Of a stretch of 64,000 bases of DNA, positions 10,595 to 48,450 are shown in pieces. The DNA comes from Escherichia phage VTCCBPA_322: sequence record PP989839.1, one strand, 5' to 3'. The position numbers and the translations under genes are program-made. Below the pieces are notes generated by a model, which saw only the letters and a list, made by a program, of their open reading frames with translations, did not search any database and was not told the DNA's origin. Positions within the stretch are counted from its first letter, which is position 1. Every line of letters starts with the position of its first letter.

Positions 10595-10620
10595 AGGGGG
10601 ACATTAGTCCCCCTCTTAAT
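10595..10620 (+). terminator. hairpin terminator after capsid gene
   Basis: AGGGGGAC-ATTA-GTCCCCCT 8-bp stem followed by CTT; weak T-run. Confidence 0.4.
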
Positions 10621-17296: not shown

Positions 17297-17320
17297 AAAA
17301 GCCCTTCGGGGCTTTTTTCT
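17297..17320 (+). terminator. strong intrinsic terminator
   Basis: AAAGCCC-TTCG-GGGCTTT hairpin followed by TTTTTCTT. Confidence 0.8.
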
Positions 17321-17327
17321 TACACAG

Positions 17328-17345
17328 GCTTACTGTAGAGTAAGC
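17328..17345 (+). promoter_or_regulatory. perfect inverted repeat (GCTTACT-GTAG-AGTAAGC) in leader of vRNAP gene; possible regulatory hairpin or operator
   Basis: 7-bp perfect stem with 4-nt loop between terminator and vRNAP RBS. Confidence 0.3.
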
Positions 17346-17383
17346 TTCCTATATACGATATAAGTTTGAACAGGAAACATGCT

Positions 17384-20300
17384 ATGTCAACATTTGACCG
17401 TCTGGCAGGTTTCGCAGACAGCATCACTAATGCCAAGCAAGTCGATGTCTCTACTGCAACCTCTCAGAAGCAAGCTGCACAAGGGCAAAGCCCTTTCCAA
17501 TTAACCCCAGAGAATGCTTACAATCTCCAAACTGGTCGTGTAGGTAATCTTGGAATCGGTGCATTCGAACCAGGTTCACTTCAGGCAGATTTCACTCAAG
17601 CCTCTCCATTAGAAATTCTTAATAAATACGGTAATGAGCAAGGTCTACAGATTCTTAATAGCCGAGCTAATGCTGCTGATGTTGTACGTCAGGACTTATC
17701 TAAGCAACGTACTAACGCAGAAGCATTTGGTGATACTCTTTCTGGTGTTGGTCTTGGTGTTGCTAATACCCTTGGGGGCATTGCTGCTCTTGGCACAGGT
17801 CTGGTCAATGATAATGCCGGGGCATCCATTGCTTCCGGGATGGATTGGTTGAATGAAGGTGTACACAATCTACAGTCTGATGCACTGAATGCTACCCGTA
17901 AGGTTGTTCAGAATCAGAACCTGATTTCTGCACAAAAGAACCAGAAACTTTATGAAGAAGACATTAAGAATGGGGAGAGCAGTTTGGTTGCCTCCTTGTC
18001 TCGCATTGGTCGTGACGCTTTTGATTCCGTTGCTAATACACTTGATAATGGTATGGCTGCCACCGATGGACTGAGTGAAGGTGTTGGTTCCCTCTTTACT
18101 GGTGGTCCACTTATCCGTGGTGTATCTGCACTTGGTAAAGTAATGGTAGGTGGTGATAAAGCTATTAAAGGTATTACCTTAGCTGCTGAGTTAGGTTCAC
18201 GCCCTGCACAGGTTGCATTGTCTGCTGGTCGTGTTGCTGCACCTGCTATAGCAATTGGTGGTATGGAAGCTGGTGGTGCATACCAACAGACTGCTTCTGA
18301 AATCATGAAGATGTCCCATCAAGAATTAGCAAGTAAGTCTCCTGTTTATCAACAACATATTGCTGATGGTTTATCCCCTGATGAAGCTCGTCGTCAGACT
18401 GCATCTGAAACAGGTATCGTTGCTGCTGGCTTAACTGCTCCGGTTGCTGCTGCTACTGGTCCACTGGTATCCAAATTTGAACTCAACCCCCTTAAAGTAG
18501 GTTCACTGGCTGGTGCTGGCTCTAACATGCTACGTGAGACTGTAGAAGAAGGTATCCAGTCCGGTACTAGTCAGTTTGCACAGAACAAAGCAATTCAGGG
18601 TAATGTAGATGCTAAGCGTGATTTGCTTAAAGGTGTCGGTGAACAAGCAGGTCTTGGTGCACTTTATGGCTTCGGTAGTGCTGGTGTTGCTCAGGCTCCA
18701 GGTGCAACTGTTAAAGCTGTTGGTGCTTCTGCTGGGCCTGCTTTACGTACTACTCTGGCTGGTGCTTCTCTGGTTGGTAGTGCATTAGCAAAAGCTGCCT
18801 CTCCTATTACTAACATCCTGGTTCAACGTGGGGAAGAAGTTGCTAAGCGTAATGAACAAGCATCTCCTGTATCAGACGCTACAGTTAACGCTGCTGCACA
18901 AGAAGCTACTGCTCAGGCAGAACAAGCACAAGCAACTGTACAGGAAGCAGTAGATGCAATGGATATTTCTCCTGAAGAGAAAGCTGCTGCTACTCAGTAT
19001 GCTGCTGACTTAACTCAGGCAATGAAGTTTGACCCAGTAGAGTTAGAGCAAGCTAATCCAGCAATCCGTGAAGCTGTTTCTGGTTCCACTAACCGTGTAG
19101 AAGCTATTCAGAAGATGGCTGACCTGGTTAATACTGCTGAAGACCCTAACGTTCAAATGGAAGCTGCAATCCAGATGTATGACAACATCATGTCTATGGA
19201 TAGCTTCATTAATCGTGACCCGGGTGCTTTGGCTAATCTGGAACAGGGTTCTCCTGCTGCTAATATTGTTGACCAGTTCTCCGGTCTGATGGCTAACGTA
19301 CAGAATACTCCAAAGGTACTTCGTGCATTCCGTGCCATCCATTCTATGATTCAGGAACAGGCTGAAGCAGGTAAGTTAAAAGCTACTGAAGAAGCTAATC
19401 AAGCCCAAGCAAACAACATTGCTATGGCTGCTGATATGTCTCCAGAAGTATTGGATGCAGATTCAGTGAACATGGTTCTGAAACATGCAAGTGAAGGTAA
19501 GATTACACTGGGTAATCGTCAGCGTGCTGCCTTGCAATCTGCTGCTGCTTTATTACAAGGAGCACGGGAATTTGACGCTAAAGCAGAAGAACTGGGCTTA
19601 CGTCCTCAGGACATTGTTAGTAAACAGATTAAAACCGACGAATCTCGTTCTAATGAAGGTCAGTACTCTGCGTTGCAACATGCTAAACGCATTCGTTCTG
19701 CGTACAACTCTGGTAACTTCGATTTGGCTTCCGCTTATCTCGACGACTTTATGAAGTTCGCCCAGCACATGCAGAATAAGGTCGGAGCGTTGAATGAGCA
19801 TCTGATTTCTGGGAATGCGGATAAGAATAAGTCTGTCCATTATCAGGCTCTTACTCCCTCCCGTGAATGGGTACGTAGTCGTACTGGCCTCGGTGTCAAT
19901 CCGTATGATACCAAGTCGGTTAAGTTTGCCCAGCAAGTAGGACTGGAGGCCAAAACCGTAGCTGATATTGCTAATGCACTTGCTACGGCTTACCCGGAGC
20001 TTAATGTTTCTCATGTGAAGGTTACCCCATTAGATTCACGTCTGGACAAGCCTGCTGCCCAGGTGGTTAAAGAGTTCCGTCAGGGCAATCTTGACGCTGC
20101 TCAATCCCAACAGACCAATGAACCAGTGAATCAGGTTGATAAATCTCCTGCACCTGTGCAAGAGGCCACTACTACTGTACAGCCTAAAGCTAAACTAGTG
20201 GTAGAAAATAAGACTGTTCCTGTTAAGGAGACTAGTTCAAAAGCAGAAGAAGTCTCTACTACCGAATCCGAAAGGGATGCTTATGTGAAAGAAAATACTA

Positions 20301-23300
20301 TTTCACAGGACATCCTCAATAAGAGCGGTGATCGTAGAGAGAGTCCTTGGCTCTTTGCTGATGGTACTGTTGTTGGTTCTAACGGCGATCACATTAGCCT
20401 GTCCGATGTATTTGGTCACGATGGCTATCGTGATATGTCTTTGGATACTGGTGCTGTACGTTCTACTTTCTATAAAGGCAGTGAGCAACCATTCGTATCT
20501 TTGCAACTTTTTGATAATCAGAAGCTAACTACTGAACAATTCAATACTGTTCAATCATTCGTAGAAGCAAACAATGCACTGATTCAGATTGGTGTAGATA
20601 CGTCTGGGCGTAACACCAATAACGTTGAGAAGATAGAAGTATCACTGGCCCAACTGAAAGCAGACTATACCGTTGGTGGTAAACCCCTGTCTGAGATGGA
20701 AACAGTGTTCCCTGTCTATAACAATGACAAGACACCGAACCAGTTCCTGAAAGCATTTACCCTGCCGGAAGAACCTAAGTCTCGCACCATTGGTTCTGAA
20801 TCCCCTTTGACTGATGTTAAGCAAGCACTGTCTTCTGCTGCTCGCTTTGAAGCATTCACTCAAAAAGAAAATAACGCTCTCACAAGTGATGTGATTAAGC
20901 GTTATCAGGACTTAATGGACTTTGGTGAAACTCTGAAGACTACTTTGTCTGACCGTCTGACTAAGTTTCTTGCTAATAAGAATGTTGGTAAACGTTTTGC
21001 AGAAGGTACTGAGGCTAACCGTTGGGTAGGTGGTAAGTTACTTAACATCGTAGAGAAAGATGGGGATACCTTTAAGTTCAATGACCAGTTGTTAGAGACT
21101 GCTGTACTTGCTGGTCTGCAATGGCGACTTACTGCTACACAAAATGCTGCTGTTAAAGATATGAAAGACGTAGCTGCTATTACTGGAGTAGAAGCATCCT
21201 TGTTACCTGAAGGTATCCTGGCTGAATTTGAGAATGCTCAGACTCTGGTTGAAGCTACTAACTCACTGGCTCAAAAGATTGAATCTTACTGGGGTCTGAA
21301 TCGTAATCCTAATGCACCTCTGGGTTATACCAAAGGTATCCCAATGGCAATGGCTACAGAGATTCTGTCTTCTTTCATTGAGATGGGTGAAGTTAAAGAA
21401 TCTATGCTGGATGTGTCTGAGTTTGACCCAGCTTCTAATAAGACTGTTGGTCTGTATACTATTGAGAAACTGGATGATAATGATGCCATTAACAAATTCC
21501 CTACTGCTATTGAGGAAGCTGTCCTCGTAGAACCAGAAGAGAAAATGTACTTTGGTGATGATATTCCTTCCGTGGCTCAAACACAGTTACGTAATCCTGC
21601 TGTTAAGAATACCCCAGAGCAGAAAGCTGCTCTTAAAGCAGAACAGGCTACCGAGTTCCGTGTACACATGCCTATGGTTAACTTCTATGAAGCATTAGGT
21701 CGTGACAACATTCTGGAACTGATGGGTGCTGGTACTCTTAATCCTGAACTGCTGAACGTGAATACTGCTAAATCATTGGAAGGTAAAAACCTGTCCGTGT
21801 CCATGGCATATGATTCCTTGTTTGGTGTAATCAATCAATTACAGGAACAGGAGAATGGTCTGGATACGCCTATTCACTATGGTTACAACATGACCCGTGT
21901 AGGTCGTATGCAGATGCTTGGTAAGAACAACCCACAATCCAGCAAGCTGGTTCGTGAAGCAATTCTGCCAACCTTCTCTACTATTGACTTAAGTAATGAA
22001 AATAGCCAAACGTTCTCTGACTTCCAGTTAGGTCTGGCTCAGGCATTGGGCATCAAGGTTCATAATATGTCCCGTGAAGCTATGTCTGAAAAACTGACCA
22101 AAGCTCTGGAAGGTAATTTGAAACCTGCTGTTGATATGATGGTTGAGTTTGATAAGTCCGGTCACTTACCTGCTGATGCAGTAGATATTCTGAAGACATC
22201 TCTGGGTGGTGATAAATCATTCGTAGCTCTTATGGCTCTTATGGAATATGCCCGTTACCTTAACAGTACTGACCGTGCTAACTTTAATACCCCACTGTAC
22301 GTTGAAGCCGATGGTGTAACCAACGGGCCAATCAATGCAATGGTATTAATGACCGGTGGTAAGTTCACTTCGGATTGGATTAAGAATACTGCTAAAGGTG
22401 GTTTGTTCTTCGGTAAAGCTGGTAAGACTATGAACGAACACCGTTCACAGGATGACAGTGTTGACTTGTATGAAGCATCTACTAATGGTCTGCAACAAGC
22501 ACTAAATGAGTTACGTACTACTTACCGTAATAATGTTCCGGTCATGAACCAGATGAATCATCTTCAGAAGTTAATGGACCTGTTCATTAAAGACTTTAAC
22601 CTGAACGAAGACGGTACTTTGGACCTGAAACGTGGTATCGCTAAAAACCCACTGACTATTACCATCTATGGTTCTGGTGCTCGTGGTATTGCTGGCAAGA
22701 TGGTTAGTGCAATTACTGACACCATCTATGAACGCTTCAGTGATGTTCTGCAAGCTCGTGCTGCTGACCCTAGCATTTCCCCAGCTATGGCAATGTTTGG
22801 TAAGGAGGCTGCGTCTGAGGCTAATGCTCAGGCTATGCTGGATACTTTCCTTACATCTATGGAAGCACTGACTGGTAATGTTCCAGTTATGCGTAAAGGT
22901 CAACTGTCTATTCAACAGGTAGAAGGTGCTCTGACTGGTAAGTTAGACCCACAGAAATTTACTGTATCTGGTAATGCCCTGAAGAACTTACAAGAGAACA
23001 TGCTTCACCTGTTCGTTGAACCAATGCGTACTGGTATCCGTAATACTGTTGGTGAAGGTCTTATGCATTCTACTGAGAACTTGCAGAAGGCTACCCAGAT
23101 TCAGTCTTTGGTTCTGCAAGACATGTTCCAACAAGCAGTACAGGCTAAGCTGGCAGAAAAAGAAAAAGACCCAACATGGAAGAAGGGTGATTTCTTAACA
23201 CAGAAAGAACTTAATGAAATCCAGGAATCATTATCTCCACTGGCTCCAATGATTGAGACTGGTTCACAGACTTTCTACATTGCTGGTAGTGAGAATACTG

Positions 23301-26300
23301 ACGTTGCTAACCAAGTTCTGGCTACCAACTTAGATGATCGTATGCGTGTGCCAATGAGCATCTATGCTCCTTCACAGGCAGGCGTTGCAGGTATTCCATT
23401 TATGACCATTGGTACTGGCGATGGCATGATGATGCAGACCCTTTCTACTATGAAAGGTGCTCCGAAGAATACCCTGAAAATCTTTGATGGTATGAACATT
23501 GGTATCGACAACATCACTGATGCAAGTCGTAAAGCTAACGAGGCTGTATACACTTCCTGGCAGGGTAACCCTATCAAGAATGTCTACGACTCCTTCTCTA
23601 AGTTCATGAAGAATGTAGACTTCAGCAAACTGTCTGATGAAACCAAACAGGCTATCGCTAAATCTGCTCTGGAATATGACCAGCGTGAAGGTGCTACCGA
23701 TGACCTGTTACGTGTTGGTGCTGAACAGATTGAACGTAATCTGCGCAACATTGCTCTGGGTGTGGATATTCGCCACAAAGTAATGAACCAGGTACAGACT
23801 ACTGTTGACCAGATGGCTGCTGTAGGTGCTCCTTATGTGAACAACGGTAAAATCTCTCTGGAAGGTCTGACTGTAGACCAGCAAGTAGCTAAGCTGAACG
23901 AACTGTTTGATGCTGAGTTAAACAAGCGTCGTGATGCAGTACGTGCTGCTAAAGCAGAACCAGTGAAAGAAGTACCAGCAATGGAACAGGTTGGTCGTGT
24001 ACTGAAGTCTGGTGTACGTCTGCTGTCTAATACTGCTATCTCTAAGCTGGCTAAAGAGATGTCTCCGGAACAGCAAGCGGTACTGAAAGAAGTACAGAAA
24101 TCCCTTGCTGCTAAAGACTACAAAGTTGTTTATGGTACTCCTGCTCAATTAGATGCTTATGCTATTGAGAAGAATATTACTCGCCCAGCACCAGAAGATA
24201 TTGAAGCTGCTGAAGCAGGTAATGCATACGGCTGGACTAACTTTGATGATAAGACTATCTACTTAGTTACCCCTTCCTTGGAGACTCTGGTTCATGAATT
24301 GGTACATGCTTCTACTTTCGAATCTGTACTGGCTCATTATGAAGGTACTCCAAATGAAGCAGTCCAAAATATTGAAGACTTAATGAATCAGTTCCGTACT
24401 CTGGATGTTAAGGATGAATCTCCGGCAGTACGCGAAGCATATGCAGATGCTCTTAATACCATTAATGGTCATTTGTCTAATGGCTTCATTGAACCAGCAA
24501 TGGCTAAAGCTGCTGCACTTAACGAGTACATGGCATGGGGTTTAACTAACCGTGAACTAATTAGCAAGCAGAAGAAAACTACTGCACTGAAGACTATGGT
24601 TCAGGCTGTGTATGAAGCAATCAAGCGTCTGGTATTCGGACGTAAGAAAGCTCCCGCTAATGCAGATGATATGTTCTCTGGTTTACTATTTAACTCTGCT
24701 GTAGTTATGCGAGGACAAGCTCCTACTGCTGCTGTAGCCAAGGATACTACTCTGTTCCATAACAAAGCATACGGTGACAATACTCGTCTGGAAGAGCTAG
24801 GGAAAACCTTCGATAAACTGATTACAGACTACATTGGTTCAGAACCAGTACAACAAGTAATTCGTAAGGGTAAATTCTCTGATGCAGTAGTGAATGCAAC
24901 TAAAGTAACCCGTGATGTTCAGGCTCATGGCTTCACTATGAATATGCAGGAACAGCGTCTATTCACTAACATCGTTGCTGCTCTGGCTACTGAAGCTGCC
25001 ATTAGTCCTGCTGCCCTGGCTCGTGCACAGGAATACTATACGCATGTTACTAAGAACCTGACCGTTGAATCGTTCATGGCTGACCCGGATAGTACTAACC
25101 CTGCTGACCGTTACTATGCTCAACAGAAGTTCGATACCATTATGGGTGCTAACAATATTGAGTTTGATGCACAGGGCCGTTCTTCCTTACTGCCTACCTT
25201 TGTTGGTCTGGCAATGGTAAGTGAAGAGGTACGTAAAGTACTGGCAGACATTCCTGTTATGAAAGCAGATAAGCAATCCGGTAATACAGTTGATGCAATG
25301 CTGACTAACATTGGTACTGCTGCAATGGCTAGTCTGAATGCTCGTGTAGCGGGTGATACTAAGGCTACCAATGTACAGGAAGGTATGGATGCACTGGCTC
25401 AGACAATCATGCAGACGAGTCTCAATGCACAGTCCTTCTATGATTCCGTTGCTACTCCTAGTGGTAATGCTATTGACCGTGCTAACCAGTATCTGGTGGA
25501 TTCTATTGATGCATTGTCTACCCGTGCTTTAGAAGGTGCTCGTGAAGTTGCAGCTAATACCAAGAACCCGTTGGTTAAAGGTGCTGCTCATGCTGCACAA
25601 CTAATAGCTGCTATTGCTACAGAGAAGAATGGTGAAATCGTAGCTGAAGGCGTTATGGCTGCAATGAACCAGGGTAAAGTGTGGCAACCTTTCCATGACC
25701 TGGTTAATGACTTAACAGGCCGTACTAAGAGCAATGCTTCTGTATACGATTTGATTAAGGCAGTACGTGCACAGGTACAAGCTGACCGTCAACAGTTCCG
25801 TGAACATTTGCCTACCACTATCGCATCTAAGTTCAGCCGTAAGCTGACTAATGATGAATGGAAAGCAATGCATACTGGTATGGGTAAAACTGACTTAGCT
25901 GTTTTACGTGACACTATGTCTCTGGCTGAAATTCGTGACTTGCTGACTGACCAAAAGATTGTTGACCGTGAAGTGAATAAGCTGGAAGCAGACTTACAGA
26001 AACAAGCTGGTCGTAACTGGCCTCTGATTAGCCGTAAATCTAAGCAACTAGCTCAGTACATGATTAACGGTACAGTTGGTAATAACCTGCTGCGTAATGC
26101 TACAGCAATCTCTCGTATGCTGGGTGAACGTCAGGCTGCACGTTCTACTGTAGATGTAGCTCAACTGGATAAACTGATTACTCTGTATGCACTGGAAGCA
26201 ATGAGTAAGACTGACCGTGAGATGTTATCTTCACTGGCTCAATCAGAAGTTGATGGAATTGATTTTGCTACTTCTTACCTGGTTGGTCAGCGTAAAGATG

Positions 26301-28096
26301 AAATGGCTAAAGCCAAGTCTGACATGCGTGCAACCCTGAACCAGTACAAAGGTTATATCCCAAGTGAGACTAAGCAAGGTGTTAACCTGATTGTTGCTGA
26401 AGACAGTCAATTTGCTGATTTGATTGAGAAGTCTTATGTACGTCTGGGTACTTATCAAGGTAGTTCTGCTAATCGTGGTTCAGCACGTAGCTACTACTTC
26501 GCACCGGTACAGGCACAGGCTCCATTCTCACAGGGTATTCTACAGAACGTTCGTAATACTGCTGGTGGTGTAGACCTTGGTACAGGATTTACGATGGGAA
26601 CCATGGTGGCTGGTCGTATTACTGACAAGCCTTCTGTAGACCGTATCACTAAAGCACTGGCTCGTGGTGAACGAGGTAATGAGCCACTGATGCCTGTATA
26701 TGATGACAAAGGTAATGTAGTTGCTTATGAACAATCTATTGACCCTAACATGCTGAAGCACATTGAGGGTGAGAACCATCTTGCTCGTGCAATCGGTGTA
26801 TGGCGTGGTCGTCAGGTGGAAGAAGCTAAGGCTCAGCGTTTCAACGATATGCTAATTGAGAATCTGCATAGCATGTATGAGAACGACATTAAGATGTCTG
26901 CCTCTAATAAGTCCCAGTACGTTAACCTTCTTGGTTCTAAGCTGGACCCAGTAACTGCTGATGCCCTTAAGCTGATGAACAGTGAAACACGTCAGAAAGC
27001 AGAAAGCCTGTTTGGCGAAGGTGAACTGTGGGTTCGTCGTGACATGCTGAATGATGCACTAGGCTATCGTGCAGCTTCCGTTGGTGATGCCTGGTCTGGT
27101 AATTCTCGTTGGTCCCCGGAAACACTGGATACCTTTAAGAAAGCTATGCTTGGTGTGTTCGGCAACCGTGCCTACAAGTATGTAATGGGTGGTGAGAACC
27201 TGGTTCAGAACTTAGTTAAAGAAGCTAAGACTCTGATTGTAGTTAAATCAGTGGTTGTACCTGCTGTTAACTTCCTGGCTAACCTTTACCAGATGGTTGG
27301 TCGTGGTGTACCCGTTAAGAACATTGCTAAAAGCATTCCACAGAAGACTGCTGAGATTAACCAGTACCTGAAATCTCGTCTGCGTCAGGTAGACGCAGAA
27401 GCAGAATTACGTGCAGCCACTAACCCGAACCAGATTCGTAAACTTAAGGCTGAGATTCAGTCTATTACTGACAGCCATAAGCGTATGAGTATCTGGCCTC
27501 TGTTAGAAGCTGGTGAGTTCTCTTCAATTGCAGATGCTGGTATTGGGCGTGATGATATCCTGATTACTGAGGGTAAACTCCATGAATACATGGATAAACT
27601 GGCTGATAAGTTACCTAAGTCTGTACGCAACGCTGGACGTTATGCACTTATCACCAAAGATACTGCTCTCTTCCAGGGTATCCAGAAGACGGTTGAGTAC
27701 TCTGACTTTATCGCTAAAGCAATCATCTATGATGATTTGACTCAGCGTAAAGGTAAGACTCGTGAAGAAGCACTAGGACGTGTAACGGAGGAGTTCATTA
27801 ACTATGACCGTTTGCCTGGTCGCTTCCGTGGGTATATGGAAAGTGTTGGTTTAATGTGGTTCTACAACTTTAAGATTCGTTCTGCGAAAATTGCAGTATC
27901 CATGATTCGTAACAACCCGGTACATGCAGCTATGGCTATGTTGGCTCCAACTCCTACCATGTTTGGTAACGTTGGTTTACCTATTCAGGACAACATCTTC
28001 AGTATTGCTGCACAAGGTAATCTTGGTTACTCCTGGGGCTTCGGTCAGGGCTTACGTGCCCATAACCTTAACCCTTGGCTCAACCTCACTAACTAA
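17384..28096 (+). CDS. virion-encapsidated giant RNA polymerase (N4 gp50-like vRNAP)
   Basis: 3570-aa ORF (ATG 17384 with AGGAAA RBS; track start 17366 is TTG); central region has T7-like polymerase motifs: DG near PLYVEADGVTNGPINA, motif B-like KNPLTITIYGSGARG, motif C-like KIFDGMNIG; hallmark of N4-like phages. Confidence 0.9.
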   Translation: MSTFDRLAGFADSITNAKQVDVSTATSQKQAAQGQSPFQLTPENAYNLQTGRVGNLGIGAFEPGSLQADFTQASPLEILNKYGNEQGLQILNSRANAADVVRQDLSKQRTNAEAFGDTLSGVGLGVANTLGGIAALGTGLVNDNAGASIASGMDWLNEGVHNLQSDALNATRKVVQNQNLISAQKNQKLYEEDIKNGESSLVASLSRIGRDAFDSVANTLDNGMAATDGLSEGVGSLFTGGPLIRGVSALGKVMVGGDKAIKGITLAAELGSRPAQVALSAGRVAAPAIAIGGMEAGGAYQQTASEIMKMSHQELASKSPVYQQHIADGLSPDEARRQTASETGIVAAGLTAPVAAATGPLVSKFELNPLKVGSLAGAGSNMLRETVEEGIQSGTSQFAQNKAIQGNVDAKRDLLKGVGEQAGLGALYGFGSAGVAQAPGATVKAVGASAGPALRTTLAGASLVGSALAKAASPITNILVQRGEEVAKRNEQASPVSDATVNAAAQEATAQAEQAQATVQEAVDAMDISPEEKAAATQYAADLTQAMKFDPVELEQANPAIREAVSGSTNRVEAIQKMADLVNTAEDPNVQMEAAIQMYDNIMSMDSFINRDPGALANLEQGSPAANIVDQFSGLMANVQNTPKVLRAFRAIHSMIQEQAEAGKLKATEEANQAQANNIAMAADMSPEVLDADSVNMVLKHASEGKITLGNRQRAALQSAAALLQGAREFDAKAEELGLRPQDIVSKQIKTDESRSNEGQYSALQHAKRIRSAYNSGNFDLASAYLDDFMKFAQHMQNKVGALNEHLISGNADKNKSVHYQALTPSREWVRSRTGLGVNPYDTKSVKFAQQVGLEAKTVADIANALATAYPELNVSHVKVTPLDSRLDKPAAQVVKEFRQGNLDAAQSQQTNEPVNQVDKSPAPVQEATTTVQPKAKLVVENKTVPVKETSSKAEEVSTTESERDAYVKENTISQDILNKSGDRRESPWLFADGTVVGSNGDHISLSDVFGHDGYRDMSLDTGAVRSTFYKGSEQPFVSLQLFDNQKLTTEQFNTVQSFVEANNALIQIGVDTSGRNTNNVEKIEVSLAQLKADYTVGGKPLSEMETVFPVYNNDKTPNQFLKAFTLPEEPKSRTIGSESPLTDVKQALSSAARFEAFTQKENNALTSDVIKRYQDLMDFGETLKTTLSDRLTKFLANKNVGKRFAEGTEANRWVGGKLLNIVEKDGDTFKFNDQLLETAVLAGLQWRLTATQNAAVKDMKDVAAITGVEASLLPEGILAEFENAQTLVEATNSLAQKIESYWGLNRNPNAPLGYTKGIPMAMATEILSSFIEMGEVKESMLDVSEFDPASNKTVGLYTIEKLDDNDAINKFPTAIEEAVLVEPEEKMYFGDDIPSVAQTQLRNPAVKNTPEQKAALKAEQATEFRVHMPMVNFYEALGRDNILELMGAGTLNPELLNVNTAKSLEGKNLSVSMAYDSLFGVINQLQEQENGLDTPIHYGYNMTRVGRMQMLGKNNPQSSKLVREAILPTFSTIDLSNENSQTFSDFQLGLAQALGIKVHNMSREAMSEKLTKALEGNLKPAVDMMVEFDKSGHLPADAVDILKTSLGGDKSFVALMALMEYARYLNSTDRANFNTPLYVEADGVTNGPINAMVLMTGGKFTSDWIKNTAKGGLFFGKAGKTMNEHRSQDDSVDLYEASTNGLQQALNELRTTYRNNVPVMNQMNHLQKLMDLFIKDFNLNEDGTLDLKRGIAKNPLTITIYGSGARGIAGKMVSAITDTIYERFSDVLQARAADPSISPAMAMFGKEAASEANAQAMLDTFLTSMEALTGNVPVMRKGQLSIQQVEGALTGKLDPQKFTVSGNALKNLQENMLHLFVEPMRTGIRNTVGEGLMHSTENLQKATQIQSLVLQDMFQQAVQAKLAEKEKDPTWKKGDFLTQKELNEIQESLSPLAPMIETGSQTFYIAGSENTDVANQVLATNLDDRMRVPMSIYAPSQAGVAGIPFMTIGTGDGMMMQTLSTMKGAPKNTLKIFDGMNIGIDNITDASRKANEAVYTSWQGNPIKNVYDSFSKFMKNVDFSKLSDETKQAIAKSALEYDQREGATDDLLRVGAEQIERNLRNIALGVDIRHKVMNQVQTTVDQMAAVGAPYVNNGKISLEGLTVDQQVAKLNELFDAELNKRRDAVRAAKAEPVKEVPAMEQVGRVLKSGVRLLSNTAISKLAKEMSPEQQAVLKEVQKSLAAKDYKVVYGTPAQLDAYAIEKNITRPAPEDIEAAEAGNAYGWTNFDDKTIYLVTPSLETLVHELVHASTFESVLAHYEGTPNEAVQNIEDLMNQFRTLDVKDESPAVREAYADALNTINGHLSNGFIEPAMAKAAALNEYMAWGLTNRELISKQKKTTALKTMVQAVYEAIKRLVFGRKKAPANADDMFSGLLFNSAVVMRGQAPTAAVAKDTTLFHNKAYGDNTRLEELGKTFDKLITDYIGSEPVQQVIRKGKFSDAVVNATKVTRDVQAHGFTMNMQEQRLFTNIVAALATEAAISPAALARAQEYYTHVTKNLTVESFMADPDSTNPADRYYAQQKFDTIMGANNIEFDAQGRSSLLPTFVGLAMVSEEVRKVLADIPVMKADKQSGNTVDAMLTNIGTAAMASLNARVAGDTKATNVQEGMDALAQTIMQTSLNAQSFYDSVATPSGNAIDRANQYLVDSIDALSTRALEGAREVAANTKNPLVKGAAHAAQLIAAIATEKNGEIVAEGVMAAMNQGKVWQPFHDLVNDLTGRTKSNASVYDLIKAVRAQVQADRQQFREHLPTTIASKFSRKLTNDEWKAMHTGMGKTDLAVLRDTMSLAEIRDLLTDQKIVDREVNKLEADLQKQAGRNWPLISRKSKQLAQYMINGTVGNNLLRNATAISRMLGERQAARSTVDVAQLDKLITLYALEAMSKTDREMLSSLAQSEVDGIDFATSYLVGQRKDEMAKAKSDMRATLNQYKGYIPSETKQGVNLIVAEDSQFADLIEKSYVRLGTYQGSSANRGSARSYYFAPVQAQAPFSQGILQNVRNTAGGVDLGTGFTMGTMVAGRITDKPSVDRITKALARGERGNEPLMPVYDDKGNVVAYEQSIDPNMLKHIEGENHLARAIGVWRGRQVEEAKAQRFNDMLIENLHSMYENDIKMSASNKSQYVNLLGSKLDPVTADALKLMNSETRQKAESLFGEGELWVRRDMLNDALGYRAASVGDAWSGNSRWSPETLDTFKKAMLGVFGNRAYKYVMGGENLVQNLVKEAKTLIVVKSVVVPAVNFLANLYQMVGRGVPVKNIAKSIPQKTAEINQYLKSRLRQVDAEAELRAATNPNQIRKLKAEIQSITDSHKRMSIWPLLEAGEFSSIADAGIGRDDILITEGKLHEYMDKLADKLPKSVRNAGRYALITKDTALFQGIQKTVEYSDFIAKAIIYDDLTQRKGKTREEALGRVTEEFINYDRLPGRFRGYMESVGLMWFYNFKIRSAKIAVSMIRNNPVHAAMAMLAPTPTMFGNVGLPIQDNIFSIAAQGNLGYSWGFGQGLRAHNLNPWLNLTN

Positions 28097-28097
28097 A

Positions 28098-28128
28098 TGA
28101 AAAAGCCCCTCTAATGAGGGGCTTTACT
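28098..28128. terminator. bidirectional intrinsic terminator at convergence of late (+) and early/middle (-) transcription
   Basis: AAAGCCCCTC-TAAT-GAGGGGCTTT 10-bp stem; U-run on minus strand (TTTTTCATTT), weaker on plus. Confidence 0.75.
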
Positions 28129-28136
28129 CTTAGAAG

Positions 28137-28367
28137 TTAAGGTGTTTTCCACATTTTAGGCTTACGCCCTTCACTTGGAAATTTACCAGTCTCCTTAATC
28201 TTTCGTAGTGTTTCTTCAGATGGGAACCACAGGAATGTGAAGTAAAGCTTCTTAGCTACGTAACGAGTTACTCCTAGTTTCTCTGCGATTTCATCGAATG
28301 AATATGTACGAACGGTATTGTTGAGAATGGCTTCACGAACAACAGAGGTAATAGATACTTGTGTCAT
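28137..28367 (-). CDS. small protein with HTH-like segment
   Basis: ATG at 28367 with AGGAAA RBS; 76 aa; SFDEIAEKLGVTRYVAKK resembles helix-turn-helix. Confidence 0.5.
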   Translation of the reverse strand: MTQVSITSVVREAILNNTVRTYSFDEIAEKLGVTRYVAKKLYFTFLWFPSEETLRKIKETGKFPSEGRKPKMWKTP

Positions 28368-28386
28368 GCTATTTTCCTATAAATGA

Positions 28387-28420
28387 GAAAGCCCTCACTA
28401 GGAGGGCTTGTTTTGTTTTG
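28387..28420 (+). terminator. hairpin with plus-strand T-run inside minus-strand module (antisense-blocking or bidirectional terminator)
   Basis: GAAAGCCCTC-ACTA-GGAGGGCTT followed by GTTTTGTTTT on plus strand. Confidence 0.4.
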
Positions 28421-28489: not shown

Positions 28490-28870
28490 TCAGATTGTAC
28501 AACCACCACCATCACAGGTGTTGTTTTCTGCAAAGGAAGCTAGAGCCTTAGCTGTCTCCTCTTTCTCATGCAGTGCCTGACGTAGCAGGTAACCCTCTAA
28601 TTCCCAAATCTTATTGAATGCATTTTCATATGCATACTGACGGCCTTTCTTCTCATCATAGATAGTTGGGTCTACACAGGCAGATACACCTTCAACTTTG
28701 AAGCCGTTTTCTAGGATGATAATGCAATGAGTTGTCAGACCCAGGTTAGCTAAATCATCTGCCGGGAGTGCAGATGGATCAACGAATGCAGACTTCACTG
28801 CATCAGCACCATTGAAATAGTAGACGCTCTTAATCTTAGCTTCGATTGCTTCTTTACTTACTGTTGCCAT
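28490..28870 (-). CDS. hypothetical protein
   Basis: ATG at 28870 with GAGG RBS (track start 28882 also ATG); 126 aa; preceded by terminator 28931-28968. Confidence 0.5.
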   Translation of the reverse strand: MATVSKEAIEAKIKSVYYFNGADAVKSAFVDPSALPADDLANLGLTTHCIIILENGFKVEGVSACVDPTIYDEKKGRQYAYENAFNKIWELEGYLLRQALHEKEETAKALASFAENNTCDGGGCTI

Positions 28871-28930
28871 TATTAGCCTCATAGAGTGGTTTTAGTGTGT
28901 GCTTAAACATGATTACGTTTATTAATACTC

Positions 28931-28968
28931 AAATAAAAAAGTCCCCCAGAGTGACGGCTCCAGGGGAC
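28931..28968 (-). terminator. intrinsic terminator ending the non-coding / tRNA-like transcription unit
   Basis: minus strand AAGTCCCC...GGGGACTT stem followed by TTTTTTATTT. Confidence 0.65.
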
Positions 28969-29752
28969 TTAGTACTATTTACCCATAGCTGGGAGGCTTT
29001 TGGTTCTTACCACGAAGACAGTCCACGCTGACTAGGCTTGGGATTGATAGTCCCGTTCCTGTGGTAATTACTCAGGCTAGGATTTAAGGAGTTCCTATTC
29101 TCCAGCGAAATTCCCGTCGAGGGGAATAACAATACAATAGCAGCCACTGGACTGTCTTACCAGTGTTGTCTTTAGAGTGCTGTGCAATCAGGACTATGTT
29201 ACTGCTAAATAGGTGAGTCATGCCAGGCTCTAACTGGCTCCTTCTTCGCAATCCTTACATACCCCTACATAATTATTGCGTTAAGCTTTTTTGTTTAAGT
29301 TTAAGTGAAGGCGTTCTTGCTGACTCATAATTAGGTTGGGCGTTTGACGAATGACTAGTTCGTTACTACCCGTTTGCCATAAGTACCTGGCGACTTTGGT
29401 TTGAGGTGGGAGTCCGAGTCCTGTACAGCCTTACCGTTCACACATTGGCAGCGTATCTAGAATAGCACTTCCGGCAACTGGATTTAACTGTTACACCTCA
29501 AATCTGGTAGGGGCGTCCAGAAGTCTCATCTGGTACTTACGCCGTCGTATGGTTACGACTTACCCCCATTGTTAGTTGCTCGGCTCACCCCCTCGACTAA
29601 AGTGACCTTTGAGGGGCTACGCTACACTATGTGTTTCATCCCATTACAGAGAATCATCAGGCGTATTAGTTGGTCACCCCGGATACCTACTTACCGAGCA
29701 TTGGTATCGTATGACTCTTCCAATTAGAAGTAGCACTGTTGCAGTCGTCACT

Positions 29753-29826
29753 GCCCATAGGTAAGGACTCGAACCTTACAATACCATTGGTTTACAATGT
29801 CGCTGTACCATTTCGCGTTCTATGCA
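29753..29826 (-). tRNA. tRNA-sized tRNA-like element (degenerate or unusual tRNA)
   Basis: minus strand: canonical T-arm TAAGG-TTCGAGT-CCTTA, D-loop-like AAATGGTACA flanked by CGC/GCG, anticodon-like arm CATTG-TAAAC-CAATG; acceptor pairs only 5-6 of 7; no encoded CCA. Confidence 0.3.
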
Positions 29827-29840
29827 ATGCTACTTTGAAT

Positions 29841-29964
29841 TGGTTATCAGTGAAGGATTCGAACCTCCGGTTGGAGTCTATAGCTTACCGCAGCAGCCCT
29901 CCAATCTAGCGGTGTCACACTTAGTCCAAACTTGAACATGTCAAGCCATCTCGTGCAACTGATA
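29841..29964 (-). ncRNA. tRNA-like RNA, about 124 nt, with perfect acceptor stem, canonical T-arm and encoded CCA
   Basis: minus strand 5'-TATCAGT...GGAGG-TTCGAAT-CCTTC-ACTGATA-A-CCA-3'; 7/7 acceptor pairing; long internal stem TTGGAG/CTCCAA abutting T-arm; too long for a canonical tRNA. Confidence 0.45.
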
Positions 29965-29966
29965 AT

Positions 29967-30094
29967 TGGTTCCAGGAGAAGGAATCGAACCTCCAAGTCA
30001 GGCCGTGAACCCTGACTATATCACCTACACTTAGTAGGCTTACTCTAACTGCTGCGCATTACATTAAAGCTATACCTAGTGTTGATATCCTGGA
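29967..30094 (-). ncRNA. tRNA-like RNA, about 128 nt, with perfect acceptor stem, canonical T-arm and encoded CCA
   Basis: minus strand 5'-TCCAGGA...GGAGG-TTCGATT-CCTTC-TCCTGGA-A-CCA-3'; 7/7 acceptor pairing; 7-bp variable-arm-like hairpin AGTCAGG/CCTGACT abutting T-arm; separated from next element by AT. Confidence 0.45.
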
Positions 30095-31130
30095 ATTGGA
30101 GTTGCCAGGGATTCCACCTGGCTCCATCTGTTTTTATAGTCACTCAGATATCGTCTGGACTCTTTACTGTGGGCTGTACCGACTACTTAGAATAACTACG
30201 GCAAAGATTATTCCACAGCTTACATTGATGGTACAACCCATCAAAGAGTACACTAGCACTGGGCCACGCATAAGTGGGCATCGGCCTTCCTCCCACAGCT
30301 AATCTACTAATGTACTCATTGATAGGATGTCATAATAGGAGGGAGGGGACGAATCCTCCCTTTATACCCTATGTTGCATGTAAGACCTAACATCTCGATG
30401 TTGTATAAATAGCGTAATGAACTATCCGACATTATTGGTTAATGTTGTGCTCAACATGAGCGTTAGTTGATAAGGGATCTGAAGCCTTATCCTAAAGATT
30501 CTAACCTTTGGGATATAGCCTAAGATTCAGAAATGGCCCCTATAGGGAGAGGCCATTGATTAACCCGAATGTTGCTTTACATTTTCTGTAATAACCAATT
30601 CTTAAAATAGTCTGTCTGACGGATGGGGGGCCACCCCTAGCGTCAGTGCCATACGGCAAAGATTAAGTTAAGAAAGGTTATGATAGGAGTTCCTATCTCA
30701 AAGGATTCTAACAGAACCCTTCACGATATTAACTACTCTTTTTTAATGCCTTTACTTCACCATCTTTATACCAAGCATACGGTATTAAGATTTTGCATCC
30801 TTCCGAATCAATGTGGAATGCTTTTTTTCCTTCAGCAGGTTCTCCACCCACGAAAGAACTAACCTTTCCATTGAGCCAGTGAATAGTAAATTTGTTCATG
30901 CTAACCCCGTTTGAACCAATCCCCTTCGGAGAGTATTAAAGGGGACTGGTTCGGTTGTTGTTATTCTGGCGGCTTGTCACCACCGTGTTTACCACTGCAT
31001 TTCCACAGGATAATGACAGTGATGATAAAAGCTATGTATGGAGCCGACACGTCTATAATTCTGACCAGTAGTAGCATCAGGACTATAAACACTACCACAC
31101 CTAGCAGCAGCTTCTGAGCCACCTACCAGA

Positions 31131-31575: not shown

Positions 31576-32130
31576 TTACGCCTTTATTAAATTAAGAAGG
31601 TTTTGGAAAGCTGGGAGATTTACACCAGCATGGATTGCACCGATTGCATCTGCTAAGTGCTCATTCTTATTCAGAAGTTTGCCTTTCTTATCAGTGAGCC
31701 AGTTGGCTTCAGGATAGATAGCATGAGCAGCACGAATCATCGTGTCCTTAGATGCAGTTTTATCACCGACCAGTGCAAGTTTGTTTTCAATTGGGGATAC
31801 TTCAAAGATTGGACAACCCAACGCACGAAATGCACCAATTAATCCTACGCATACGCCATAGGATTTCATACCGTTAGCAGACTGAGAGCCTACCGGTACT
31901 TCTACGAATACTGCTTTAGCAGACCGTAACCATTCCTCACAACCAAGAAACAAATCGTGAGCGGCTTGTATATCTTTGGAGTTGGTTCGAACTTGTTTGT
32001 TGTGGTCAACTTCAGTTTGAACCAGTTTAAGTTCGACCTGCTCGAAGACGCCGGAATCAATGTCCAGCATCCCACGAGCTAAACCCCAATTGCGGAGACT
32101 AATATCTGCACCAACAATTGGGATTTTCAT
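31576..32130 (-). CDS. RuvC-like Holliday junction resolvase
   Basis: 184 aa; N-terminal IVGADIS (RuvC-type first acidic motif) and C-terminal HLADAIGAIHAG; start overlaps SSB stop (TAATG). Confidence 0.5.
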   Translation of the reverse strand: MKIPIVGADISLRNWGLARGMLDIDSGVFEQVELKLVQTEVDHNKQVRTNSKDIQAAHDLFLGCEEWLRSAKAVFVEVPVGSQSANGMKSYGVCVGLIGAFRALGCPIFEVSPIENKLALVGDKTASKDTMIRAAHAIYPEANWLTDKKGKLLNKNEHLADAIGAIHAGVNLPAFQNLLNLIKA

Positions 32131-32927
32131 TAACGTTTACCGAACAGTGATTTACCACCAGCAGGAGCAGTACCCGTGCCAGCACCCGGTTTAGGAGGCA
32201 AGCCTGATTTACCAGTACCACCGGCAGAACTCTTAGTCTTGTCACGAGTTTTGCCTTTGTTCTTTTCCAACCATGCTGCATAGAATACAGCCAGTTCCGG
32301 GGTCAGTTCTTTCTCAGCCTTCTCTGCTTCCTGAGCCTCGACGACTGTGACCAGCAGTTCCGGGTGAAACACTTTCTGAATCTCGTTTACTTCACGAGTT
32401 TCGCCAGAGTCAACGTAACCGTTGTCTCCTTTGACTTGTTTGGATTCCAGAACTTTTTCCAGAGCGAAGGTAACAGTCTGACCAACCAGCTCAACTGGAA
32501 CCATGACAGACTTATTGACTTCTGCTTTAGCATCGAAGTCATAGACTTTGACAATCTTCTCTTCGAAGTCTGCTTCAGGCAGTTCAGTACCGGTTGCCAT
32601 CAGCATCATGTCATTAATGACGGTATAACCAGGCAAGAAGTATTCTTTACCATTCTTCTCGTAAGTAGGCTTATTGCCTTTAGCATTACCAGAAGTGAAG
32701 TACACCTGAGCACGGAACTCACCAGCAGGCACACCATCTGAGTTTTTCAGGTCTTCAATAATTAACTGCATCCAGTCTGCACCGGAGTCAGCTTTACCTA
32801 CGTAAGCTACTTTGACATCGCCCGTGTAGATATCAGTCTCTTTTGCACCGAATCCACCACCACCAAGGGTGTCTTTTACAGCTTCAACGTTTTTGGTTTT
32901 TTCTTTCAAGTTACTGAACAGTGACAT
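32130..32927 (-). CDS. single-stranded DNA-binding protein (N4 gp45-like)
   Basis: 265 aa with AGGAAA RBS; Gly-rich flexible C-terminal tail ending SLFGKR; size and position match N4-type SSB; assignment by synteny. Confidence 0.55.
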   Translation of the reverse strand: MSLFSNLKEKTKNVEAVKDTLGGGGFGAKETDIYTGDVKVAYVGKADSGADWMQLIIEDLKNSDGVPAGEFRAQVYFTSGNAKGNKPTYEKNGKEYFLPGYTVINDMMLMATGTELPEADFEEKIVKVYDFDAKAEVNKSVMVPVELVGQTVTFALEKVLESKQVKGDNGYVDSGETREVNEIQKVFHPELLVTVVEAQEAEKAEKELTPELAVFYAAWLEKNKGKTRDKTKSSAGGTGKSGLPPKPGAGTGTAPAGGKSLFGKR

Positions 32928-43025: not shown

Positions 43026-45077
43026 TTACTTAACTGCTTTGACTAGCTTGGTAGCTAATTTAGCTTCTTCTTCAGTCAGACCCATTGCAGTGAATGACTT
43101 CTTAGCATGACGCTTATAGTCTTGCAGGGCATGACCCTTCTGATAGTCAGAGTATGACGTATCGTTCAGGATGCTACGCAGATTATCAGCGTGTTTACCA
43201 GAAGGAGCTACTTTAGTAGCAGCAGCAGAACGGTGAGCCTTAGCTTGCTTCACTGGTTTAGGTTTACCGATTGGTTTAGCTGTGTAAGTTGTACGTACAT
43301 CAGCAATCTTAGCCACCACATCGCTACCTACGCCCAAAGCAGCCCATGGCTTACGAGCCTTGCCTCGCATTTCCACAAGCAAATCAGCAGCAGCTAACTT
43401 ATCTTCTGGGGTTGTTGCATTAAGTAACTCTTTAACCAGTTCCTGGATTTGTTCTTTCACAGTAGGAGCCTTCTTAATAACAGGTTTGAGGTCAGTAGCT
43501 TTCACTGGTTCAGCAGCTACAGCTTCATTTAGTGACTCTTCCATATTCAGTGCTTCCTTACTAGCAACTGTACGGAATTGTTCTACAGAACCAGATGTGA
43601 GATTAGTGTATTTGAGGTTAGTACCACGATGCCCACCAACCATAACAAGTGTGGTAGGGGAACTGTGGTTCCCAACGATGGCATCATTAAGCAACTTCTT
43701 GCCCACTTCCGTCTTAGACAGATAGATACCATTGTTAACGTTGCAACGTTCCTCTTCCGGCAGTTCAGCAATAATGTGATATGCAGATACACGCATCTTA
43801 TTAGTGTTGTACTGAGGAACAGCAAATACATCTTCTGGTGCTACTTTACCAAGGATAGTTACGTTACCACCGAAGCTACGAATGTAGCTCATGGATGCTA
43901 CGTGTAGGCCATTAGAACAGTCCTGACGACGGTCAGGGTCTACCAGGTCTTCACGTACCTGCACTTTACAGCCTACCCATTGACGAATGTTGCCTGAGTG
44001 ACAGTCAACGAATACACGTTTACCATCTTCTTTCTCTTTATACTGAAGACGTTTCAGGAACAAGATAGAACCATCATCAGCAATAGGCAGTTCAGCAGTT
44101 TCCATGAACTTCATCAGGTCTTCTACTGAGTGCAGACGGTCTTTAATAACCGGAGCCAGACGCTCAAGGAACTTAGTAAAGCCCTTGTAGTCTTTCAGCT
44201 TGGCAGACTGACGCAAGTGACGTTGTAGGTTCTCAACTCCAGGGATAACCCCATTGTTGGTAACAGCAACAACCACTTCATCTTCCTTCACATCAGTGTG
44301 GAAGTTAGCGTCATCAGTACTAATGGCACCTAATGCAGCTAACTTCTCAGAAGCAGCAGCCAGCTTATCCTGGTTCGAAGTTTTAGTTACTTCAATGTAA
44401 GGCAGTGGTGTCTGTTCACGGTTGGTAAATACAACATGTACGCCTTTTATGTGCTTAGCTTGTTTAGCAAACTCACCCATTTCATCATCAGATACTGCAC
44501 GAATTGCAACAGGCCATTCTTGTCTGAGCATGGTGTTGGTATGTTCATACCCCCAACCCATTACGTCGTTAATAAAGCGAACCAGTGCAGGATGGTTATG
44601 GTCTTTGTCCCAACCAGTAACCCACATCAGATTGTCACGCTTGTCATAACAACCATCTGATACTGTTACTTCTGGTTCATTAGCCTGTACAGCCAGGAAG
44701 GTATCCATAGCTTTAGATACTAATGTCTTAGTGGGATTGCCCAGCTTAATATCAGCAACGTTACGGGCTGGTGGAACATCAGTATCATCATGGAAGAACT
44801 CTTTAAGCTTAGCTTTAGCTACCTTGAAGAAACGAACGAATCCGTTAGTGTTCTTCTCTGCTTCCAGATACTCAGTACGTAGTGATACCTCTGGTGCAAT
44901 GTTTACTTCTATCAGGTCTTTGGTAATTCCCAGACCTTTGGTTTGTGCTTCAGATACAATACGAGCAACCCGTGGGTCGCTCTGAGGATACACAATTGTG
45001 GAGCCATCTGGCTTCCACAATGTTAGGTTTCGACTGTCAACTGCCAGTGCGATGATAGAAATCAGTTCGATTTTCAT
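43026..45077 (-). CDS. rIIB: rIIB-like protein
   Basis: 683 aa directly downstream of rIIA-like gene; assignment by synteny with rIIA-like partner, no motif. Confidence 0.4.
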   Translation of the reverse strand: MKIELISIIALAVDSRNLTLWKPDGSTIVYPQSDPRVARIVSEAQTKGLGITKDLIEVNIAPEVSLRTEYLEAEKNTNGFVRFFKVAKAKLKEFFHDDTDVPPARNVADIKLGNPTKTLVSKAMDTFLAVQANEPEVTVSDGCYDKRDNLMWVTGWDKDHNHPALVRFINDVMGWGYEHTNTMLRQEWPVAIRAVSDDEMGEFAKQAKHIKGVHVVFTNREQTPLPYIEVTKTSNQDKLAAASEKLAALGAISTDDANFHTDVKEDEVVVAVTNNGVIPGVENLQRHLRQSAKLKDYKGFTKFLERLAPVIKDRLHSVEDLMKFMETAELPIADDGSILFLKRLQYKEKEDGKRVFVDCHSGNIRQWVGCKVQVREDLVDPDRRQDCSNGLHVASMSYIRSFGGNVTILGKVAPEDVFAVPQYNTNKMRVSAYHIIAELPEEERCNVNNGIYLSKTEVGKKLLNDAIVGNHSSPTTLVMVGGHRGTNLKYTNLTSGSVEQFRTVASKEALNMEESLNEAVAAEPVKATDLKPVIKKAPTVKEQIQELVKELLNATTPEDKLAAADLLVEMRGKARKPWAALGVGSDVVAKIADVRTTYTAKPIGKPKPVKQAKAHRSAAATKVAPSGKHADNLRSILNDTSYSDYQKGHALQDYKRHAKKSFTAMGLTEEEAKLATKLVKAVK

Positions 45078-45081
45078 CAGA

Positions 45082-47646: not shown

Positions 47647-47689
47647 TTATTTACTCTCCAGATTAAATGTTGCTTCCTGGTTATGACTA

Positions 47690-47884
47690 TTAAGAATTTA
47701 ATGCTGATTTACAGGCTTCAAAGATTTCTTTACGCAATTCCCGTTCTTTTTCTGGTTCTTCATGAGGATTGTAACCAAAAGGACTGTTTTGCATAAAACT
47801 AGCTAGAATTAGTAAATCTTCTTTAGATAGACCATCAATAGTGATGGAGTATTGGTTTTTGCTTTTTACTGTAGCGTTAGCCAT
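47690..47884 (-). CDS. small hypothetical protein
   Basis: ATG at 47884 with GGAG RBS (track start 47914 is TTG). Confidence 0.45.
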   Translation of the reverse strand: MANATVKSKNQYSITIDGLSKEDLLILASFMQNSPFGYNPHEEPEKERELRKEIFEACKSALNS

Positions 47885-48426: not shown

Positions 48427-48450
48427 AAAAAGACCTCCCGGAGGAGGTCT
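48424..48450 (-). terminator. intrinsic terminator
   Basis: minus strand AAGACCTCC-TCCG-GGAGGTCTT followed by TTTTTTTGA. Confidence 0.7.

Follow-up and report, generated by a model that had tools for sequence, protein, structure and literature searches.

At about position 28100 of the window, the 64,000-nucleotide stretch of Escherichia phage VTCCBPA_322 (record PP989839.1) analysed here, two gene modules of opposite direction converge, and a single hairpin occupies the short gap between them. The question raised by this locus is whether the hairpin stops transcripts that arrive from one side or from both. The explanation that fits the available observations best, and is most probably correct, is that the hairpin represents a canonical Rho-independent (intrinsic) terminator that would work from both strands and that would be the orthologue of the hairpin between gp49 and gp50 of phage N4. 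The hairpin is already known in the sense that a two-way terminator is annotated at the same site in congeneric phages.

By its sequence, the window belongs to a Gamaleyavirus (G7C/N4-like, Schitoviridae, Enquatrovirinae). Over the 3.5 kb around the hairpin, the identity to many Escherichia phages of this genus is 90-95%, and the window has the N4-type gene set (vRNAP, an N4SSB-like protein, an RNAPII subunit, DNA polymerase and primase) on the expected strands. The greedy ORF map places the tail spike, the structural proteins and the vRNAP in a plus-strand module that extends from about 31 to 28096, and a Sak4-like protein, the primase and the DNA polymerase in a minus-strand module that extends from 28137 to about 63860. 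The C-terminus of the vRNAP (the last 299 residues) matches phrog_2206 'virion RNA polymerase' with E = 1.7e-159. The vRNAP ORF is listed from a TTG at 17366; the true start is probably the ATG at 17384, which has AGGAAA ahead of it. The opposing 76-aa ORF matches phrog_9565 (function unknown), is without a Pfam match, and is conserved at 87-94% nucleotide identity in SP5M, L004, L006, L007 and L009.

The transcription program of N4 gives these modules a probable timing. The late transcripts of N4 are opposite in direction to the early and middle ones; the late genes are transcribed by host sigma-70 RNAP under the direction of N4SSB and the middle genes by the phage RNAPII, and middle and late transcription overlap in time (PMC4496689). 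It follows from this scheme that the plus strand of the window would be 'late' and the minus strand 'early/middle'. The sequence-only reading had taken the hairpin for a probable shared stop of late and early/middle transcription. The shared two-way stop gains from the comparative evidence described below, whereas the 'early' part would have to be dropped: because the early (vRNAP-driven) transcription of N4 covers the early genes alone, the minus-strand transcripts that reach the hairpin are expected to be middle ones, and early, vRNAP-driven transcripts are not expected there (PMC4496689).

Table 1. Positions of the features discussed, in the window unless a record is given. Tail scores are given for the plus (+) and minus (-) strands.
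Feature	Record	Positions	Strand	Description
Terminator hairpin		28102-28125	both	5' arm AAAGCCCCTC, 28102-28111; 3' arm GAGGGGCTTT, 28116-28125
Template of minus-strand U-tract		28090-28104	-	RNA UUUUUCAUUUAGUUA; tail score 5.04
Plus-strand U-tract		28123-28137	+	RNA UUUACUCUUAGAAGU; 3 contiguous U, then pyrimidine-rich; tail score 3.93
Mutant version of plus-strand tail				TTTTTTTT; design sequence only
Second hairpin		28389-28409		AAGCCCTC actag GAGGGCTT; between gp49-family gene and 76-aa ORF; tails + 4.63, - 4.18; dG -12.7 kcal/mol
Hairpin, 13 bp, imperfect		28939-28970	-	AAGTCCCCTGGAG ccgtca CTCTGGGGGACTT, then TTTTATTT
A/T-flanked hairpin		3025-3048		AAAGCCCCC aattaa GGGGGCTTT; tails + 4.39, - 4.06
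Hairpin		10595-10614		AGGGGGAC atta GTCCCCCT; tails - 4.54, + 3.14
Terminator-like hairpin		17297-17316		AAAAGCCC ttcg GGGCTTTT, then TTCTT
vRNAP gene		17366-28096	+	last gene of plus-strand (structural/late) module; stop TAA 28094-28096
76-aa ORF, phrog_9565		28137-28367	-	last gene of replication/middle module; stop 28137-28139
gp49-family gene		28490-28882		beyond 76-aa ORF; PF13876
N4SSB-like single-strand-binding protein		32130-32927	- module	phrog_743
RNA polymerase, phrog_2051		56052-57269	- module	read as large subunit of N4-type RNAPII
PhAPEC5 terminator	KF192075	36206-36244	both	computational prediction
PhAPEC7 terminator	KF562340	36605-36643	both	computational prediction
SP5M terminator	MT682708	38028-38070	both	computational prediction
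N4 gp49-gp50 intergenic hairpin	NC_008720	34486-34522		37-nt gap between convergent stops; unannotated in N4 record

Positions 28100-28131 read AAAAA-GCCCCTC-TAAT-GAGGGGC-TTT-ACTCTT, the TTT being followed by ACTCTTAG. The two arms form ten perfect pairs, six of which are G-C, around the loop TAAT (28112-28115), and they are identical when read on either strand. The GC core is made of GCCCCTC (28105-28111) and GAGGGGC (28116-28122). The earlier description of a 10-bp GC-rich hairpin between the vRNAP gene and the last minus-strand gene is therefore accurate, both in the structure and in the place between the stops at 28096 on the plus strand and 28137 on the minus strand. The flanking runs agree with that description in part: the A-run is present with five A (28100-28104), but the T-run is limited to three T (28123-28125) followed by ACTCTT, and for this reason the hairpin is asymmetric. 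The layout of a bidirectional terminator, that is convergent stops with AAAAA 5' and TTTACTCTT 3' of one hairpin, is present in this asymmetric form. The base of the stem is 5 nt past the vRNAP stop on the plus strand and 11 nt past the stop of the 76-aa ORF on the minus strand, outside coding sequence. The stem and the loop size are within the range of intrinsic terminators (a stem of about 5-14 bp and a loop of 3-8 nt).

Chance does not account for the hairpin. The 31-nt stretch folds as plus-strand RNA at -18.7 kcal/mol (z = -5.5) and as minus-strand RNA at -17.6 kcal/mol (z = -5.3), and 0 of 200 shuffles fold as well. Perfect hairpins of this class (at least 10 bp, at least 6 G-C pairs, loop of 3-8 nt) number one in the 64-kb window versus a mean of 0.025 in 40 dinucleotide-preserving shuffles, and this sole hairpin falls inside the 40-nt intergenic gap. 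Its dG of -17.7 kcal/mol is the lowest among the 12 terminator-like perfect-stem hairpins that were listed for the window. The structure, the position and the non-randomness of the hairpin are thus direct observations.

Several other signals were looked for at the same place. Rfam 15 at its gathering threshold has no match in the whole window; generic terminators are not expected to have a dedicated family. ARAGORN finds no tRNA near the hairpin or elsewhere in the window, and the T7 class II pause signal ATCTGTT is absent around the hairpin, as judged by eye. A promoter-like match at 28181-28153, which points into the hairpin, was disregarded because sigma-70-like sites are not enriched in the window (14 found versus 32.7 expected).

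The sequences that follow the GC core differ between the two strands. Scored in the manner of TransTermHP on the 15 nt past the core, the minus-strand tail UUUUUCAUUU reaches 5.04, about the 100th percentile of the 15-mers of the window, with T at six of the first eight bases, and provides the U-tract of an intrinsic terminator; its region (28090-28104) overlaps the stop codon of the vRNAP gene. The plus-strand tail UUUACUCUUA (in its shorter form UUUACUCUU) is moderate, with a score of 3.93, the 99.1st percentile and T at five of eight bases, and the consensus scan accepts it just with a shorter stem. Termination of the minus-strand transcripts thus looks well supported. Termination of the vRNAP-gene transcripts on the plus strand is plausible, and it may be leaky or partial because the U-tract is just moderate. 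With just 5 nt between the vRNAP stop and the base of the stem, a ribosome terminating at that stop could also hinder folding of the hairpin on the plus strand.

The hairpin is maintained throughout the family. Terminators are annotated on both strands at the same site in the GenBank records of PhAPEC5 and PhAPEC7 (by ARNold) and of SP5M, and, among more distant Schitoviridae, on both strands in Erwinia phage Ea9-2 and Klebsiella phage FBKp27 and on one strand in Stenotrophomonas phage Philippe; the two-strand predictions come from independent annotators. Thirty IMG/VR loci were fetched with the vRNAP C-terminus as a probe, 29 of them with a readable 3' end. An A-flanked and T-flanked GC-rich hairpin is found 1-14 nt past the vRNAP stop in 27 of the 29 loci, N4 included, the two exceptions being L021 and L032. 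Each of the 11 other genera sampled (Pourcelvirus, Philippevirus, Johnsonvirus, Xoxocotlavirus, Aorunvirus, Ithacavirus, Litunavirus, Efbeekayvirus, Exceevirus, Pacinivirus and Luzseptimavirus) has such a hairpin, A-flanked and T-flanked, in the same place. The stems vary by lineage (GCCCCTC, GCCCCCA, GGCCACC, GGGGAACC, GGGAAGGGT, GGGACTC, GGGGGAGC, GGGGAGC and others), and the loops, which measure 3-8 nt, are free in sequence among relatives: hairpins with the GCCCCTC stem carry 13 different ones.

The pairing itself was examined in 19 hairpins, all with a loop of 4 nt, which were aligned on the centre of the loop. Standard pairs make up 95.3% of the cells versus 76% in shuffles and at most 69% with the partners slid. 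Due to the centring the alignment leans towards structure; the hairpins themselves, however, were identified in each genome separately, and always at the same genomic position. The observed value is reached by 0 of 500 shuffles, and two-sided change occurs in some lineage at all 10 pairs. Conservation with compensatory change is thus a matter of observation. Because the stems differ, the pairs covary and 13 loops are found on an identical stem, selection, as read from these comparisons, acts on the pairing and not on a sequence motif. The retention of position, pairing and A/T flanks while the sequence varies is what the signature of a terminator looks like. The same position relative to the vRNAP stop and a structure kept across the family also make the hairpin of the window an orthologue of the N4 gp49-gp50 hairpin and of the terminators at the vRNAP 3' end of Schitoviridae.

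The asymmetry of the tails leads to the strongest alternative, which is nevertheless unlikely: the hairpin could be effectively one-way, an efficient stop for the minus-strand (middle) transcripts that the late vRNAP-gene transcripts largely read through. Late read-through would then end at the hairpin 28389-28409, by head-on collision with opposing polymerases, or nowhere. Besides the difference between 3.93 and 5.04 in the window, the medians of the family (4.10 in the vRNAP direction versus 5.04 on the minus strand) identify the weaker vRNAP-direction tail as a family trait. The window lies near the family median in this respect (rank 14 of 33), and ARNold called a plus-strand terminator in PhAPEC5 and PhAPEC7, which have a similar plus tail (TTTAATTCTT, 4.10). 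An internal control tells against termination on the plus strand: the one-way terminators of the minus-strand module at junctions between co-directional genes (48430, 54830, 62602 and others) score 1.7-3.6 on their plus side, so that 3.93 is barely above their range. The plus tail is at the 99th percentile of the 15-mers of the window. Most phage terminators have an antisense activity that is weak to mediocre (PMC10204088). The terminator T50 of phage LUZ7, the weaker tail of which scores 4.09, still achieves about 90% termination. Finally, the T-rich plus flank is kept in nearly all relatives although the downstream gene differs, which counts against the one-way reading. The better plus tail of the hairpin 28389-28409 counts in favor of it. 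This second hairpin has GTTTTGTTTT (score 4.63) behind it on the plus strand and could so provide a fallback for late transcripts that have escaped the first one and have covered the 76-aa ORF with 231 nt of antisense RNA.

A mainly post-transcriptional role, in which a 3' stem-loop blocks 3'-5' exonucleases or forms an RNase processing site while no polymerase is released, is very improbable. Stable 3' hairpins do stabilise upstream mRNA, as noted for phage terminators in PMC10204088, and ONT-cappable-seq cannot fully separate termination from processing (PMC9163698). A protective stem, however, would have no need for the A/T-rich flanks that are kept on both sides in about 40 genomes and that are specific to intrinsic termination, and LUZ7 T50 lowered downstream reporter expression in a trap assay, which reads out transcriptional read-through. 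A protective role and termination are also not mutually exclusive.

Least probable of all is a role at the DNA level, whether as a hairpin promoter for the vRNAP, as a cruciform, as a site of recombination or as a signal for replication or packaging, or else a palindrome that arose by chance, the latter being excluded by the 0.025 expected hairpins and by the conservation in relatives. The N4-type vRNAP does use DNA hairpin promoters, which have a short stem and a conserved 3-nt loop and are located upstream of early genes, as described in PMC9163698 with reference to Haynes and Rothman-Denes 1985. The loop here has 4 nt, and 3-8 nt in relatives; the vRNAP gene and a middle-module gene both end at the hairpin, which leaves no downstream gene for a promoter to serve, and the distal end of the minus-strand module, the place of the early genes in the N4 layout, is about 35 kb away. 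A vRNAP promoter was therefore rejected on loop length and position. Homology breakpoints exactly at the hairpin edge (28125/28126) and loops inverted between close relatives suggest a recombinationally active palindrome, but breakpoints at a conserved terminator are expected merely because the adjacent accessory gene differs.

With the two-way intrinsic terminator as the preferred explanation, it is possible to describe in some detail how the two transcription streams would end. That termination actually takes place in this phage, by which polymerases and with what efficiency, we infer. The minus-strand transcripts of the replication/middle module would end at the hairpin 28102-28125: the nascent RNA would fold GCCCCUC onto GAGGGGC, and UUUUUCAUUU would then destabilise the RNA-DNA hybrid. 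Late vRNAP-gene transcripts on the plus strand would form the same stem, followed by UUUACUCUU, and would terminate as well, probably less efficiently. Either way, the RNA hairpin would fold behind the polymerase while a weak rU:dA hybrid occupies the active site, resulting in transcript release. The A-tract upstream of the hairpin for one direction would be the template of the U-tract for the other. Neither stream of polymerases would thereby enter the opposing module in antisense during the period in which middle and late transcription coincide. As these overlap in time in N4, polymerases are likely to meet head-on at the junction, and such encounters may strengthen termination, in line with a proposal made for E. 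coli in work cited in PMC10204088. The hairpin probably also protects the 3' ends of both mRNAs.

The polymerases can be assigned by analogy with N4. The plus-strand enzyme is most likely the host sigma-70 RNAP activated by the phage SSB, and the minus-strand enzyme is most likely the phage T7-like RNAPII, although some transcripts may come from the host RNAP. RNAPII would have to obey signals composed of a hairpin and a U-run, as the class I termination of T7 RNAP and the in vivo data on LUZ7 suggest.

The region next to the hairpin is variable. In comparisons of the window with relatives (L001, L002, L003, L004-L009, L031 and L033), homology breaks exactly at the two hairpins, over the region 28126-28388. 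The first homology block ends at 28125-28128 in 9 of 14 loci, and the next block starts at 28381 in 7 loci. The space between the hairpins is occupied by the 76-aa ORF in the window, by a 162-aa DUF2829 gene in PhAPEC5, PhAPEC7 and ECBP1, and by the 76-aa ORF plus further genes in SP5M, L004 and L006. This looks like the exchange of an accessory-gene cassette bounded by terminator hairpins.

The loop, too, has changed in a particular manner. It is inverted on an unchanged stem between the window (TAAT) and L006 (ATTA), so that reverse-complementing the 24-nt hairpin of L006 gives exactly that of the window. Likewise, L013 has the loop TATT and L014 the loop AATA, with near-identical flanks. 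These pairs suggest that the loop has been flipped recurrently by hairpin-mediated DNA events, rather than by four point mutations. A more speculative possibility, which we regard as doubtful, is that the hairpin combines two functions, as a polymerase-agnostic stop for two mechanistically unrelated enzymes that meet head-on (the multisubunit host RNAP from the vRNAP gene and the T7-like RNAPII from the replication genes) and as a recombination boundary for accessory-gene cassettes exchanged between Gamaleyaviruses. If so, the clean loop inversions between close relatives would be the footprint of hairpin-mediated DNA transactions.

The window contains further hairpins of a similar kind. Its only other convergent junction, between the end of the tail-spike gene (3021, plus strand) and that of a 149-aa ORF (3051, minus strand), has the hairpin 3025-3048, which is likely a second bidirectional terminator. 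The hairpin 17297-17316 is located between the stop of a 654-aa structural gene (17289) and the start of the vRNAP gene, which is consequently bracketed by hairpins at both ends; the gene may need read-through or its own promoter (17317-17383). Within the plus-strand module, the ORFs 9375-10577 and 10645-11286 are separated by the hairpin 10595-10614, which has a good T-tail on the minus strand only. Oriented in this way against the surrounding genes, it could stop antisense transcripts or act as a stem that stabilises mRNA.

The hairpin 28939-28970, upstream of the gp49-family gene, has a dG of -24.3 kcal/mol (z = -3.8), and PhAPEC5 and PhAPEC7 have a terminator annotated at the corresponding position. 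Three terminator-like hairpins thus follow one another in the final 900 bp of the minus-strand module. A further stretch of about 2 kb (29084-31117) has only short ORFs of 44-75 aa on mixed strands, and no tRNA was found there. Most close relatives have a tRNA (Ile, Xle or Val) annotated about 1 kb beyond the gp49-family gene; the phage of the window may have lost it or may carry a degenerate copy.

The hairpin marks the boundary between the late (structural and vRNAP) and the middle (replication) units of a G7C/N4-like coliphage. Its importance beyond correct annotation is small. It adds one more natural compact two-way terminator, which might be reused as a genetic part in the way LUZ7 T50 was. 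Of some interest is the possibility that one and the same signal of hairpin and U-run governs both the host polymerase and the T7-like RNAPII of the phage.

The closest known counterparts are the terminators of PhAPEC5, PhAPEC7 and SP5M, which have the GCCCCTC/GAGGGGC stem at the orthologous site directly past the vRNAP stop and differ from the window slightly in loop and flanks. The opposing gene in PhAPEC5 and PhAPEC7 is the DUF2829 gene instead of the 76-aa ORF. The gp49-gp50 gap of N4 reads AAAGCCCCTC-ATTA-GAGGGGC-ATTTTTTATT. It shares with the window the position, an identical 7-bp GC core and, in the middle-gene direction, the loop ATTA, but it has T for A at one base of the A-tract, so that just the core pairs perfectly. 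The tails of the N4 hairpin are ATTTTTTATT and TTTAATTTCT.

The T-phi terminator of T7 is a class I signal, composed of a hairpin and a U-run, that stops a T7-like RNAP and also the RNAP of E. coli. It differs from the hairpin of the window in its use in one direction and its longer, imperfect stem, and no sequence homology between the two is claimed. Bacterial bidirectional terminators (Ju et al. 2019, Nat Microbiol; Wang et al. 2023, Mol Cell; both as cited in PMC10204088) resemble the window in that a single hairpin, with an A-tract on one side and a U-tract on the other, serves both strands where genes converge, and head-on collision of RNAPs may contribute. Unlike in bacteria, the polymerases converging in the window are probably of two kinds, judging from N4: the multisubunit RNAP of the host and a T7-like RNAPII.

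A search of the literature for direct evidence on terminators at gp49/gp50 of N4 or G7C and on termination by RNAPII turned up just generic ARNold predictions and the studies of LUZ7. Bidirectional terminators are described for phiKZ and PAK_P3 in PMC10914365, which mentions neither LIT1 nor the vRNAP. LUZ7 belongs to a distant subfamily (Migulavirinae) and infects a different host. Its terminator T50 has the sequence ...caaaaagaaaGGGGAGCattaGCTCCCCttcttcttta... and a termination site at 43803 on the plus strand (PMC10204088). The LUZ7 record has ORF72, the last rightward gene, at 43593-43790 (plus strand) and gp073, the vRNAP gene, at 43804-54015 (minus strand), which identifies T50 as the hairpin that separates ORF72 from the vRNAP stop. 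The annotated TAG of ORF72 (43788-43790) is inside the T50 loop (L034, 1277-1299), and translation of ORF72 thus ends within the terminator hairpin.

T50 is built like the hairpin of the window, with an A-tract, a 7-bp GC core, a 4-nt loop and a U-tract, 5 nt from the vRNAP stop, on a different stem (GGGGAGC/GCTCCCC). Its tail in the middle-gene direction (UUCUUCUUUA, 4.09) is comparable to the plus tail of the window, and its tail in the vRNAP direction (4.89) is stronger than that of the window. The 90% termination mentioned above is an average in infected cells, obtained by ONT-cappable-seq, and in each of the three hosts in which it was tested T50 ranks with the nine strongest terminators (PMC10204088). 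It alone has strong antisense activity, which amounts in the reporter trap to 99.4% in E. coli, 97.6% in P. aeruginosa and 96.9% in P. putida (PMC10204088). According to the text and the legend of the same paper, on which the bidirectionality of T50 is based here, transcripts from both strands end at T50 in the late-infection track (PMC10204088).
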